A stretch of 63,932 nucleotides of DNA, counting the filler, from Nitrospinota bacterium (GTDB taxonomy: Bacteria > JAUXIQ01), in the NCBI GenBank assembly GCA_030620925.1. It is 13 parts of 13 records of this genome, joined end to end, with 100 filler letters (N's around TTAATTAATTAA, not from the genome) between each part and the next. Parts side by side here need not be neighbours in the genome. Positions count along the whole stretch, not along the records: positions 18,035 to 22,401 come from JAUXIQ010000226.1; 12 more parts are not named here. One strand, 5' to 3'. A program made the position numbers and the translations under genes. Below are positions 11,175-22,501 of the stretch, piece after piece. Positions within the stretch are counted from its first letter, which is position 1; every line of letters begins with the position of its first letter. Below the pieces are notes generated by a model. The model was not told where the DNA came from and made no database searches. It was given only the letters and a program-made list of their open reading frames with translations.

Positions 11175-11274
11175 NNNNNNNNNNNNNNNNNNNNNNNNNN
11201 NNNNNNNNNNNNNNNNNNTTAATTAATTAANNNNNNNNNNNNNNNNNNNNNNNNNNNNNNNNNNNNNNNNNNNN
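11175..11274. other. Artificial contig linker (N44-TTAATTAATTAA-N44). Others at 15287, 17935, 22402, 25842, 32836, 36157, 39456, 47370, 55264, 58319 and 60980, each 100 bp
   Basis: Identical spacer with stops in all six frames, repeated 12 times. Confidence 0.99.
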
Positions 11275-15286: not shown

Positions 15287-15386
15287 NNNNNNNNNNNNNN
15301 NNNNNNNNNNNNNNNNNNNNNNNNNNNNNNTTAATTAATTAANNNNNNNNNNNNNNNNNNNNNNNNNNNNNNNNNNNNNNNNNNNN

Positions 15387-17691: not shown

Positions 17692-17830
17692 CTTAAGAGG
17701 TTTACATAACCCTATTATGGTTCATGTATCCTGCCGGTTGGGCGGTTACATGAAGGATAAAAGGTGGTCGCAGCATGAGGAGAAGGATGTTCCTAACCGG
17801 TTGTTCTTATATTTCGGGGAGACTGAATGA

Positions 17831-17934
17831 GTGCCCTCTTTTCAGAAAAGAATTACTATAATAGTACTGCTCCTGGTAATTATAGTTTCGGCGGGCACCA
17901 TCGGCTACCGGATTATGGGATGGACTTTGCTGGA
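17831..17934 (+). CDS. Potassium channel (Kch/TrkA-type), 5' fragment
   Basis: VPSFQKRITIIVLLLVIIVSAGTIGYRIMGWTLL, the typical GTxGY...GW of M1/pore entry. Confidence 0.7.
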
Positions 17935-18034
17935 NNNNNNNNNNNNNNNNNNNNNNNNNNNNNNNNNNNNNNNNNNNNTTAATTAATTAANNNNNNNNNN
18001 NNNNNNNNNNNNNNNNNNNNNNNNNNNNNNNNNN

Positions 18035-19054
18035 CGCGGCTGGACGGACGGACTGCCCATCGTGCCCCCCACCAGGGAGAGGGTGGAGAAAATGCTGGAA
18101 TATGCCCGGGGTGAGCCGGGCGAGGTGGTAGCCGCCATTCCTCCCAAACAATGTGAAGCCACGATGGAGAAATTGGCGGTTAACGCGGTTATGGCCGGGT
18201 GCCTGCCTTCCTACTTCCCGGTGGTGGTCACCGCCATGGAAGCCCTCAAGGCGGAGGAATTCAACCTTTACGGTATTCAGACCACCACCCACGTGGCCTC
18301 ACCGTTAATTTTGGTGAACGGCCCTATGGCCGGGGAGCTGGATATAAACGCCGGCTACAACGTCTTCGGCCAGGGATGGATGGCTAACGCCACCATAGGG
18401 AGGGCGGTGAGGCTGGCGCTGTTCAACATCGGCGGAGCGAGCCCCGGTGTGTTAGACCGGGCCACCTTCGGTCACCCGGGGAAATATTCTTATTGTATAG
18501 CCGAAAACGAGGAAGCCAACCCCTGGGAACCTCTTCACGTCGAGCGGGGGCATGCGCCGGAAACCAGCACCGTCACCGTCATCGGCGCCGAAGCGCCGCA
18601 TAACATAAACGATCACGTAAGCACCACGGCGGAGGGGATTTTGATCACCGCCGCCTTCACCATGTGCGGGATGGGCACCAATTCCTCTTATCTGATGTCT
18701 GAAGCCATGCTCGTTCTGGGGCCGGAGCATACCGAGATAATCGCCGCAGAGGGTTGGAGCAAGAACGACGTGAAGCGATTCATCTTCGAGACGGCCCGGC
18801 ATCCTCGCGGAAGGCTTAAGAAAGGCGGTATGTGGGGGATGTTCGACTGGCCGGAGGAATACAACGTGGACGATGACGACATGATGTTGCCCATTTTACG
18901 CAAGCCGGAAGACTTGATGGTTATCGTAGCCGGCGGCTCGGGGCGCCATTCCGTTTTCGTGCCCACCTTCGGGATCACCAGGTCGGTTACCAGACCAATT
19001 GCGTTAGGCGACGGAAACCCTGCTTTTTCGGTCGAGGATTTTCGCCGTCATTGA
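18035..19054 (+). CDS. Conserved protein with a GWTDGLPIVPPT motif (partner of UGSC proteins), 5' truncated
   Basis: DGLPIVPPT, AVNAVMAGC, ANATIGRA, AENEE..PW, VAGG.G.HS. Confidence 0.8.
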   Translation, partial: RGWTDGLPIVPPTRERVEKMLEYARGEPGEVVAAIPPKQCEATMEKLAVNAVMAGCLPSYFPVVVTAMEALKAEEFNLYGIQTTTHVASPLILVNGPMAGELDINAGYNVFGQGWMANATIGRAVRLALFNIGGASPGVLDRATFGHPGKYSYCIAENEEANPWEPLHVERGHAPETSTVTVIGAEAPHNINDHVSTTAEGILITAAFTMCGMGTNSSYLMSEAMLVLGPEHTEIIAAEGWSKNDVKRFIFETARHPRGRLKKGGMWGMFDWPEEYNVDDDDMMLPILRKPEDLMVIVAGGSGRHSVFVPTFGITRSVTRPIALGDGNPAFSVEDFRRH

Positions 19055-19082
19055 GGCGAAAGATTACCTAGGGAGGGAGAAC

Positions 19083-19694
19083 ATGACAGAGAAACGTATC
19101 GAGCTGATGGTACCCGTGAGCCAGGCCAACGTCGAGGAATCGGCCATGGCCGATCGACCCGCTGGGATGGACGGCAAGGTGCTCGGCGTGCTGTGCAACC
19201 GTAAGCACAACGCCGACATACTCCTGTCGGGGCTGGTGGAACGGTTGAGCGGCAGGTACGACTTTTCCGAAACCGTCTACAGGGAGAAACAAGCCGCCTC
19301 GCCGACGCCGGAAAACACCCTGAACGAGCTGAAGGAGAAGTGTGATATTGTCCTGAACGCCATCGGCGACTGAGGATCGTGCACTTCGTGGAGTATCCAC
19401 GACGGGATCCTGCTGGAGAAAGAGGGTGTGTCCACGGCTTCCATCTGCACCGACGAGTTTGCGCCGCTGGGTCAGGCCGAGGCTGAAGCCCTGGGTATGT
19501 CTACGCTGCCCATAGTGGTAATACCGCATCCGTTGGCCGGCATCAAACCTGATGGAGTCGAGCGGAGGGTGGACGCGGTTCTGGATGAGGTGGTTTATGT
19601 TTTGACTACCGAGAGGCACAAATTGGCCGAGGAGTATAAAAGCAAATACCTGCGGGAGAAGAGACAGTTCAGGGCAAAATCCATTTTTGAATGA
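19083..19694 (+). CDS. UGSC-family selenoprotein (Sec97 encoded by TGA 19371-19373)
   Basis: ORFs 19083-19373 and 19428-19694 are in one frame; read-through gives AIGD-U-GSCTSWSIHDGILLEKEGV; SECIS-like hairpin follows. Confidence 0.9.
19373..19411 (+). promoter_or_regulatory. Bacterial SECIS-like hairpin
   Basis: Apical stem TCGTGGA/TCCACGA (19386-92/19396-402), GTA loop 19 nt after the UGA; lower stem AGGATC/GATCCT. Confidence 0.8.
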
Positions 19695-19707
19695 CGGGAG
19701 CGGAGAC

Positions 19708-20076
19708 ATGGAAGATAGCCGTGAAGACAGAGCGGAAAAATTGATCGCCAAAATGAAAGAGGCCAGGGGGTACATATACCCTCAGTGGGAGTTTATGGCC
19801 AGGCAGGACCCCGACTTCGCCGAACTCTACCAGCAGCTCTACGAGCGATGCTTCGGGGAAGGGGAGAACCTCCCCGCCAAATACAGGGAATTGGGGCCCA
19901 TAGCGCTTCTGGCTTACAAGGGGCACGTGGACGCCGTCTTCGAGCACATGAAACGCGCCATCCGGCTGGGGGCCACCAAGGGAGAGCTTTTCGATGCGGT
20001 CATAACCCTCCTCACACCCGGAGGCGCGCCCACCATGCACGCCGGGATGGCCGCCCTCATGAAACTCGAGGAGTAA
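19708..20076 (+). CDS. Carboxymuconolactone decarboxylase/AhpD-like protein
   Basis: LPAKYREL, HMKRAIRLGATKGEL; no CxxC motif. Confidence 0.8.
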   Translation: MEDSREDRAEKLIAKMKEARGYIYPQWEFMARQDPDFAELYQQLYERCFGEGENLPAKYRELGPIALLAYKGHVDAVFEHMKRAIRLGATKGELFDAVITLLTPGGAPTMHAGMAALMKLEE

Positions 20077-20191
20077 AGCGGCGATTAATGAGGGGTGAGG
20101 ATAAAGAAAATCGACCCCGCTGGCAATTTCAATTGCGGGGTGGCATAATAATATTGAAAGATAAATTCAATAGTACCTCCGGGAGGGTTGA

Positions 20192-20668
20192 ATGAGAGTT
20201 AAGCTTGGCGTTGTCTTATGGGCGGTTGTGGTTTCCCTTTTCGCCTTCTCAACCATCGGGGAGGCCAGAGAGCTTACCTGGCAGGAGGTTGCATTGGAAC
20301 TGATGAGTCCGGCTTGCCCCGGGAGAACGGTATTGGATTGTCCCAGCGGCGAGGGAAATCAGCTAAGGACGCTCGTCAAACAGAAGGTGGCTGAAGGCTG
20401 GACCAAGAAACAGATAATAGATTATTTCGTTAGTATTTACGGTGAGGAATACCGGGCTTCACCGCCCGCAAAAGGCTTCTACCTGCTGGCATGGATAGTG
20501 CCCTTTATGGCGATAGGTGTGGGGGCGGTGGTAGTGCTCCTGGTTATGCGTGTGTGGAGAAAAAAAGGAAAAATAGCAGACGAGACCGAATCGGAGGGTA
20601 TTCCCGAGGAGAATATAAGCGCTCTCTCGGAAAAATTGGATGAAGAGCTCAAGAAGTTCGATTACTGA
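20192..20668 (+). CDS. ccmH: Cytochrome c biogenesis protein CcmH
   Basis: Signal peptide, LMSPACPG...DC, YFV..YGE, LAWIVP transmembrane helix. Confidence 0.8.
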   Translation: MRVKLGVVLWAVVVSLFAFSTIGEARELTWQEVALELMSPACPGRTVLDCPSGEGNQLRTLVKQKVAEGWTKKQIIDYFVSIYGEEYRASPPAKGFYLLAWIVPFMAIGVGAVVVLLVMRVWRKKGKIADETESEGIPEENISALSEKLDEELKKFDY

Positions 20669-20687
20669 GAAGAGCGGAGGAGCGGTT

Positions 20688-21014
20688 TCAGGTCTTCGCT
20701 CGTTTCTTTATTTCTTCTATCTTCCCTTCCTTCTCATCCTCGAGGGATTTTTTCTCTTCATTGAACTTCTCCGTGAGGGCGGCGGCCATCAGCTCGGCTT
20801 CCGGGGGAGGATATGATAGAGGGAGCTTACCCACCTCAGCTTTCAGCATGATGTCTTTCTCTGCTATCTTTGCCTGGTACTCCTTCTCTATTTCTTCTAT
20901 CTCTTTTCTCATCTCCTCCGTGAGGGGGACCTGCTCGGCCCTGGCCTGCTTCCCCAGGAGCTCGGTTTTCTCCAGTGCCAATTCGACAGCGCTTTTTATT
21001 TTCTCTTCGTTCAT
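20688..21014 (-). CDS. Coiled-coil hypothetical protein
   Basis: IKSAVELALEK N-terminus, E/K-rich, GAGGAAGG RBS. Confidence 0.6.
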   Translation of the reverse strand: MNEEKIKSAVELALEKTELLGKQARAEQVPLTEEMRKEIEEIEKEYQAKIAEKDIMLKAEVGKLPLSYPPPEAELMAAALTEKFNEEKKSLEDEKEGKIEEIKKRAKT

Positions 21015-21213
21015 CGTGCCCTTCCTCGTATTATAAGGAGATTTTATGTGCCGCACCCTGAACCTGCCTTCCAACAGATAATATACCAGAATTGAGGATC
21101 ATTTCATCACATTTTTCGCGCTTCCTTCCCCCGGCCCCTTGTAAGTGTTATAATCTTTGGGGAAAAGATGGATATACAGTCGATACTTAACCCGAACTCT
21201 GCGGAATTTTTTC

Positions 21214-22185
21214 ATGGATGAGGAAAGGACCAGAAAACTCAAAGAGGTGACGGAGCGGACGGGGAGGGTCGTCCCGGAGATGGTCGCCATCAGGCCGCCC
21301 AGCGAGGCGAAGAGCCTCCTGATACGCGCCACCAGAGGCTGCTCATGGAAAAGGTGCGTATACTGTTCGGCATACATGGGCGGCGATTTCAGCGTCCGCA
21401 CGGTCGATGAGATAAAGGCGGACGTCGAGCTCTCGCTTCTCTATTACGGCCCGGACGCGCAAAGCATCTTCCTGGGCGACGGGGACGCGCTGGAGCTGGG
21501 TATAGACCCCCTCATTGAAGTACTCCGGTTTATCCATTCATGTTTCCCGCGGCTCGAGCGTGTCACCAGTTATTCCACCCCCCTTACTCTGAACCATACT
21601 CCTGCCGCTGATCTGAAACGGATAAAGGAGGCGGGGCTTTCCAGGTTGCACGTGGGGATGGAGTCGGGCGATGACGAAGTTCTCCACCTCATGCAGAAAG
21701 GCGTTGGTGGGGAAGCCCAGGTGGAAGCGGGACGCAGAGTGATGGAGTCGGGCATGGAGCTTTCGGAATACATCATGCTGGGTCTCGGCGGGGAGGAGCG
21801 GTGGGAGCAGCACATTGAGAACAGCGCCAGAGTTCTGAACGCCATCAACCCCCACTTCTTGAGGGTGCGCACGCTGGCTTACGCCCAGGGCGCTCCCACC
21901 TTCGAAGAGTTCGACGTGCGGGGAGGGAAGTTGAAGCTGAAACTGTTTCCCGAGGGTTACGCTCAATTGCAGACCCCGGAGGGCATCTTGCTGGAGCTGA
22001 GGACGCTGCTGAAAAAGCTGGAGGTTTCAACCGTTGTGACCAGCGACCACAGCTCAAACTACTTCCCGGAGGTGAGAGGGAAACTGCCGGAGGACAGGGA
22101 GGCCATGCTCTCCGTCCTGGATGAATATGAGAAAGGGATGGCCGACGGCACGATCAAGCTGCCCCGGGTGAAGCTGTTTACCTGA
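21214..22185 (+). CDS. Radical SAM protein
   Basis: RPPSEA.SLL, CSWKRCVYC, FLGDGD, GMESG, SDH.SN. Confidence 0.9.
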   Translation: MDEERTRKLKEVTERTGRVVPEMVAIRPPSEAKSLLIRATRGCSWKRCVYCSAYMGGDFSVRTVDEIKADVELSLLYYGPDAQSIFLGDGDALELGIDPLIEVLRFIHSCFPRLERVTSYSTPLTLNHTPAADLKRIKEAGLSRLHVGMESGDDEVLHLMQKGVGGEAQVEAGRRVMESGMELSEYIMLGLGGEERWEQHIENSARVLNAINPHFLRVRTLAYAQGAPTFEEFDVRGGKLKLKLFPEGYAQLQTPEGILLELRTLLKKLEVSTVVTSDHSSNYFPEVRGKLPEDREAMLSVLDEYEKGMADGTIKLPRVKLFT

Positions 22186-22501
22186 TATTAATGACAAAGA
22201 TGGAATAAAAGTTTTGAGGGAACCTTTTTCAGAAAACCCCAGCCTTACCCCACCTCAAACTACTCCGAAAATAGAATATATCTCCAATCGCGCCGGGTAG
22301 GCGCACCAAAGAGTTTATTGGAGTGGCATACCGCGGGGTGGGGGGGTTATCACAAACGGTGGAGCGCCGTACAGGCGCCAATTTAATTAGGGTAACAACC
22401 CNNNNNNNNNNNNNNNNNNNNNNNNNNNNNNNNNNNNNNNNNNNNTTAATTAATTAANNNNNNNNNNNNNNNNNNNNNNNNNNNNNNNNNNNNNNNNNNN
22501 N

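Follow-up and report, generated by a model that had tools for sequence, protein, structure and literature searches.

A predicted UGSC family selenoprotein with a covarying SECIS hairpin, and its paired 'Unknown_1' gene, in a Nitrospinota draft genome

Two short open reading frames on a contig of a Nitrospinota bacterium are separated by a TGA codon, and the locus raises the question whether they are two genes or the two parts of a single selenoprotein gene. The window, the whole stretch of DNA that was analysed, comprises 63,932 nucleotides with filler included and consists of contigs from a draft genome (2.5 Mb, 445 contigs, 89.5% complete). The contig of interest, C251, occupies positions 18035-22401. 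Between the contigs lie spacers made up of 12 bases flanked by 44 N on each side (11175-11274, 15287-15386, 17935-18034, 22402-22501 and nine more), and ORFs that cross a spacer, such as 17827-17982, are therefore artefacts. One other genome is related to the organism at family rank and 59 further ones at the domain level only, which places it in a very sparsely sampled lineage. Its selA gene and a SECIS within the coding region indicate a member of the Bacteria.

Under translation table 11, the two ORFs (19083-19373, 96 aa, and 19428-19694, 88 aa) lie in a common frame whose sole break is the TGA at 19371-19373. Reading through this codon yields a plus-strand gene at 19083-19694 with 203 codons and a terminal TGA, preceded by a Shine-Dalgarno-like AGGGAGGGAG (19070-19079) that was read from the sequence 3 nt ahead of the ATG. 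The product of 203 amino acid residues contains the stretch LNAIGD-U-GSC-TSWSIHD with U at residue 97. This position aligns with a Cys codon or a TGA in all homologs examined and is predicted to be selenocysteine (Sec). The codon of Cys100 (19380-19382), the probable resolving Cys of the UxxC motif, is invariant in 31 of 31 aligned sequences. The Pfam family PF24696 ('UGSC family') matched the read-through product with 179.9 bits (cut-off 25; E 6.3e-53) over profile positions 2-171 of 172, corresponding to residues 8-175 without interruption at the internal TGA. The NCBIfam equivalog NF041046 ('UGSC family (seleno)protein') also spans the TGA, with 153.3 bits against a curated cut-off of 125 and coverage of profile positions 2-147 of 147. 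The initial annotation had read the two short ORFs as one frame broken by a single TGA, with an IGD-U-GSCTSWSIHD motif of the UxxC type and a 203-residue UGSC selenoprotein as its product; the frame and the motif were confirmed, and the full-length matches to both profiles, above their curated cut-offs, agree with the proposed identity.

The UGSC family is already catalogued and was published in 2008; the present gene is a further member. The original description reports 255 Sec and 21 Cys forms of a 'UGSC-containing' family in the GOS data, a suggested Trx-like fold, a proposed redox role, and a fusion to a conserved domain named 'Unknown_1' (Zhang and Gladyshev, PLoS Genet 2008, PMC2398784). 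The gene shares with the family, as defined by PF24696, NF041046 and PMC2398784, the full-length profile match, the invariant [U/C]GSC motif, the in-frame TGA followed by a hairpin and the link with Unknown_1, and nothing essential differs. The partner is here a separate upstream gene, whereas the 2008 supplement shows a C-terminal fusion. A review from 2026 (PMC13188914) lists the family under NF041046 and counts it among those whose functions 'remain largely uncharacterized', in line with the initial annotation, which had called the family poorly characterised.

Members of the family were found in three of 61 sampled genomes, with eight matches in total. Seven of these cover the site, and all seven carry TGA there; the eighth (L028), at the start of a contig, comprises a C-terminal fragment. 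The genome studied here has three UGSC genes, on contigs C251, C223 and C416, each with TGA at GD*GSC, and the four copies in the two other genomes likewise have TGA at GD*GSC. The paralogs on C223 (L023:1483-2034, minus strand) and C416 (L024:1495-1929, plus strand) each adjoin their own partner-family gene, downstream of UGSC in the former and upstream in the latter, and the genome thus holds three pairs. A search of the phylum of genome G054 returned G054 alone.

A Cys residue at the aligned U position, by which the initial annotation had proposed to check its reading, was encoded by TGC or TGT in all 23 Cys-form loci recovered by a scan of genome contigs. These loci belong to Archaeoglobi, haloarchaea, Methanobacteriaceae, Actinomycetota, Burkholderiales, Dehalococcoidia and others. 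The scan was driven by a Cys-coded motif and returns Cys forms only, whereas the scan of metagenome contigs was TGA-specific; since both scans are codon-specific, no Sec:Cys ratio can be drawn from the data. A word-index protein search returned three full-length UGSC proteins (P0002-P0004), all with GDCGSC, Sec forms being split in the databases. In the alignment of 31 sequences, G95, D96, U/C97, G98, S99 and C100 are invariant.

Bacterial SECIS elements, for instance that of Escherichia coli fdhF and those described by the bSECISearch model, are hairpins within the coding region soon after the UGA, with a G at the start of the apical loop. Downstream of the TGA at 19371, a 7-bp upper stem of TCGTGGA (19386-19392) and TCCACGA (19396-19402) encloses the loop GUA (19393-19395), which is separated from the UGA by 19 nt. 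Its location inside the coding region just past the UGA and its loop starting with GU resemble the bacterial elements, but with 3 nt, or 5 should the closing A-U pair open, the loop is very small, and no bulged U is evident. In the minimum free energy fold of the window copy, and in this copy only, a lower stem (19373-19411) is added, composed of AGGATC/GATCCT (19373-19378/19406-19411) and two more pairs. The hairpin expected downstream of the TGA forms on folding: the region 19371-19420 yields -19.6 kcal/mol with a z of -2.48, and three of 200 shuffled sequences fold equally well. A longer stretch gave a z of -1.56, with 16 of 200 shuffles equally good. By itself, the folding energy of the hairpin is modestly unusual and not striking. 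The terminal TGAs at 19692 and 19052, taken as internal controls on the same contig, have no comparable hairpin (-5.2 and -1.9 kcal/mol, respectively). A scan of 19000-19800 against Rfam gave two chance-level matches only (E 3.9 and 4.8) and no family for the element.

The structure was examined by covariation. The TGA-specific pattern scan of metagenome contigs detected at least 121 stretches, 80 of which were taken; 72 of the 80 encode a UGSC-profile protein on read-through. The full stretch of 72 nt was obtained from 71 of these 72 loci, all distinct. Together with the seven genomic Sec-form copies, these stretches were aligned in codon register and without gaps, giving 78 sequences in total. 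In the upper helix (columns 25-31 with 35-41), 88.1% of cells are paired, and six of the seven pairs show changes on both sides; the tested structure was taken from the fold of the window copy, which favours the figure for paired cells and does not explain the changes on both sides. For the lower helix the corresponding values are 64.1% and none of eight pairs. The covariation score of the whole structure, 0.307, was not reached in any of 500 shuffles (0.167 +/- 0.007), and controls with the pairing partners slid by one to three columns scored at most 0.110. All seven upper pairs form in 43 of the 78 sequences, six in 20, and five or fewer in 15; these 15 homologs, with fewer than six pairs, fold as register-shifted or longer hairpins. 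The loop begins with GU in 63 of the 78. Because it is paired and covaries across the 78 Sec-form homologs, we accept the upper hairpin as the predicted SECIS element. The lower stem is probably a local feature outside the SECIS element, and we attribute it largely to the conserved U-G-S and D-G-I codons. Of the SECIS-like hairpin put forward in the initial annotation, the upper 7-bp stem with its GU loop thus stands, conserved with compensatory changes, while the lower stem is present in the window but is not conserved (0/8).

The genome encodes the machinery that recoding would use. The genes selB (415.5 bits) and selA (611 bits) adjoin each other on contig C407, and a tRNA-Sec was detected with Rfam (78.3 bits) and by ARAGORN, with anticodon TCA. 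Two selD genes (398 and 382.8 bits, on C134 and C51; L010 and L011, respectively) have one in-frame TGA each, which makes selenophosphate synthetase a predicted selenoprotein in this genome, present in duplicate; bin contamination (3.55%) could be an alternative source of the second copy. The search for selA, selB, selC and selD called for by the initial annotation hence found selA, selB, two selD genes and tRNA-Sec, all within the same genome.

Against this background, two other readings of the TGA at 19371 were weighed. It might be a true stop, leaving either a pair of short genes or the pseudogene of a UGSC gene that once contained Cys. Table 11 does return ORFs of 96 and 88 aa, and TGA serves as an ordinary stop elsewhere on the contig, both in the partner gene (19052) and at the end of UGSC (19692). 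A true stop is nevertheless very improbable, because the family profile is continuous across the TGA, conservation at the protein level continues past it, the same codon recurs in all seven site-covering genomic copies and in 72 homologs among the 80 metagenome stretches taken from at least 121, the downstream hairpin covaries, and the Sec machinery is complete. Should the organism instead read every TGA as an ordinary amino acid, the open frame would follow as well, but nothing else was found in favour of such an altered code. That both the partner gene and UGSC terminate at TGA contradicts it, Cys at the site in homologs fits Sec and not Trp or Gly, and selA, selB, selD and tRNA-Sec are present; we regard it as more improbable still than the true stop. 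From the sequence evidence, 19083-19694 is very probably one gene for a UGSC selenoprotein of 203 residues, in which the UGA at 19371 would be recoded to Sec by the SelB pathway with the hairpin at 19386-19402 as the SECIS element. The gene's terminal UGA, which has no hairpin, is the predicted stop of translation.

The expectation that standard annotation would split such a gene held in part: generic gene callers split it and database proteins are cut at the TGA, but the family has an NCBI naming model.

A gene for a carboxymuconolactone decarboxylase (CMD, AhpD-like) of PF02627 (E 2.6e-10) follows on the plus strand at 19708-20076, 13 nt past the UGSC stop. It lacks a CxxC motif. In the sister genome G001, a CMD neighbour also follows UGSC (L028:325-690), with 81% identity, and the CMD/AhpD-like protein may be a third member of a UGSC/partner redox unit. 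Further downstream on the same strand, C251 carries a CcmH/NrfF-like gene for a thiol protein of cytochrome c maturation (20192-20668; PF03918, E 1.2e-19) and a radical-SAM gene (21157-22185). An ORF of 128 aa without family lies on the minus strand of the contig.

Upstream of UGSC, an open frame on the plus strand runs from the contig edge to a TGA stop at 19052-19054 (18035-19054). It has 339 codons, with its 5' end lost at the contig start (about 25 codons missing). Since it carries the motif AVNAVMAGC.P.Y.PV displayed in Fig. S1A of PMC2398784, it is assigned to 'Unknown_1', or the GWTDGLP family. Neither Pfam nor NCBIfam, even at permissive thresholds, returned a family for this partner protein. 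The partner family is large: an exhaustive search found 5250 clusters at 50% identity with E <= 0.001 and 1236 with E <= 1e-30, and a word-index search returned 6751 proteins, almost all of which bear the name 'hypothetical'. 'Thioredoxin' is the name of one UniRef entry, and the ESM Atlas gave only unnamed clusters or clusters auto-named 'thioredoxin family' without a Pfam family. C56 and C154, numbered as in the window protein, are nearly invariant. Six members of the family of about 710-740 aa (P0125, P0130, P0132, P0136, P0141 and P0142) have two matched stretches and are tandem duplications of the partner domain.

The pairing of the two genes is frequent. Among the six other genomic loci that hold the Sec site, five (L023, L024, L026, L027 and L029) have the partner beside UGSC on the same strand, upstream in three and downstream in two; it was not found in L025, and the fragmentary locus L028 starts within UGSC. 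Of the 23 Cys-form loci, 22 have the partner (L034 does not), fused in two cases (L050 and L051). The partner was likewise seen in 55 of the 72 metagenomic Sec-form loci (among the 80 stretches taken from at least 121), located upstream in 24, downstream on the same strand in 30 and on the opposite strand in one. Half of the downstream partners (15 of 30) continue the UGSC frame as in-frame fusions. It was not seen in 17 of the 72 loci, most of which end at contig edges, though at L063 about 900 nt are available on either side. Pieces of the UGSC profile occur in 35 of the best 150 representatives of the partner family, and most of these pieces either start right after the Sec position or stop right before it, an indication that gene callers cut the Sec-form fusions at the TGA.

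The more interesting question concerns the role of the UGSC/partner pair. An AlphaFold2 model of the UGSC protein from an alignment of 31 rows (pLDDT 90.9, pTM 0.84) consists of alternating strand-helix units, with U97 opening the helix 98-113 after a strand at 89-93. Comparison with the PDB gave generic flavodoxin-, CheY- and Rossmann-like matches only (Foldseek TM at most 0.47; best Z 10.2 in a wide VIA search, with a flat list), and no thioredoxin was among the fold matches listed by Foldseek and VIA. This confident model points to a doubly wound fold of the flavodoxin/Rossmann type rather than to the Trx-like fold suggested in PMC2398784. The partner was modelled from 67 rows with a pLDDT of 95.9 and a pTM of 0.93. 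Its best Foldseek relatives, class I fumarate hydratases, were unconvincing (TM 0.31, rmsd 16 Å). A wide VIA search of the PDB with the partner gave no convincing relative (best Z 5.3, two chains with Z >= 5, none with Z >= 8), and the profiles of both proteins searched against PDB sequences gave no match at E <= 1.

A relation to known selenoproteins emerged from the glycine reductase family. A search of the 61 genomes with the Pfam model GRDB (PF07355) gave 12 matches (L174-L185) in six genomes, and each was read onward. All 12 run straight into an in-frame TGA, so PF07355 ends one residue before the Sec; the ORFs used to build the model had evidently been cut off at Sec, and a Sec module of about 90 residues is missing from it. 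The motif that follows is UGTC in one true GrdB and UPLC, UPAC or UPVC in small PrdB-like proteins. The genome studied here has two candidates for small PrdB-like GRDB selenoproteins with U-P-L-C, on C300 (L177:1501-2298) and on C8 (L182:863-1363, minus strand).

The true GrdB, from genome G042, reads AVILTST-U-GTC-TRCGATMVKELERAGLPTVHICT followed at some distance by IPHPLG, and the UGSC protein of the window reads IVLNAIGD-U-GSC-TSWSIHDGILLEKEGVSTASICT followed by IPHPLA. BLASTP aligned the two proteins with U on U and 35% identity over 57 residues (E 9e-6, as a single comparison). In hhalign, the UGSC alignment of 31 rows matched the 12 read-through GRDB-family sequences with a probability of 94.8% and an E of 5.1e-8 over 92 columns, UGSC 79-178 on GrdB 329-425, again with U on U. 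Common to both are a Sec after a hydrophobic beta strand, the motif U-G-[ST]-C or UxxC, and the subsequent patterns ..LE.xG.PT..ICT.. and ..IPHPLG..; the N-terminal parts, in contrast, are unrelated. At E <= 0.01 the Pfam GRDB model did not match UGSC, PF24696 alone being reported, and BLASTP showed no similarity between UGSC and the small GRDB-like selenoprotein of its own genome (E 1.7). Judged by these alignments, UGSC and the C-terminal part of GrdB/PrdB have remotely homologous Sec modules. UGSC is, on the same comparisons, not a member of the GrdB family, the Sec module being all that the two appear to have in common.

The partner was also compared with the other components of such reductases. 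Its alignment with GrdE/PrdA in hhalign had a probability of 0.07%, and that with the remainder of GrdB 1.0%; both were rejected. GrdE/PrdA (PF09338) had no match in the genome studied here (G000, 89.5% complete) or in the sister genome G001. As the partner is unlike GrdE/PrdA and no GrdE was found, the analogy with these reductases extends to the Sec module only.

In GrdB and PrdB, Sec is the catalytic nucleophile, and the mechanism considered here is drawn by analogy with them. Tentatively, UGSC may be the selenol/thiol redox subunit of a two-part enzyme formed with the adjacent Unknown_1 protein. Sec97 and Cys100 would constitute a selenol/thiol redox pair at the N-terminus of a helix. The Sec would attack a substrate bound to the partner, or a disulfide of the partner, possibly between the nearly invariant Cys56 and Cys154. 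The adduct would next be resolved by Cys100 to give a Se-S bond, which an external reductant, thioredoxin or a similar donor, would re-reduce. More broadly, and still as a tentative proposal, the pair might represent an undescribed, very widespread selenoenzyme of two subunits that are often fused, with UGSC as a Sec module derived from GrdB/PrdB and the partner as the catalytic or substrate-binding component, its predicted fold being without a solved relative; the three pairs in this genome might then act on three different substrates.

UGSC could also be a non-catalytic electron carrier of the selenol/thiol type, comparable to thioredoxin or to protein A of glycine reductase, that reduces the partner or other targets. 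A UxxC motif at the start of a helix is typical of dithiol and selenol-thiol carriers, and C56 and C154 of the partner could form the target disulfide; the redox role proposed in PMC2398784 would also suit a carrier. However, the homology that could be detected is with GrdB/PrdB, whose Sec is the catalytic nucleophile, and not with GrdA or thioredoxin, and the frequent fusion with the partner suits a subunit better than a diffusible carrier. A pure carrier is on balance rather unlikely, and we rate the two-subunit enzyme above it. If the two-subunit selenoenzyme exists, its enzymology alone would be new, as the fusion has been in print since 2008.

The significance of these findings for annotation, abundance, gene pairing and the GrdB/PrdB homology attaches to the family in general rather than to this window. 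Among environmental selenoprotein families, UGSC ranks with the most abundant, with 255 Sec forms in the GOS data according to the 2008 study (PMC2398784). Generic gene callers cut UGSC genes and their fusions at the TGA, and selenoproteomes are undercounted as a result. The steady pairing with a large partner family that has no profile model, together with the remote homology to the Sec module of GrdB/PrdB, provides a concrete and testable hypothesis for the role of the UGSC/partner pair.
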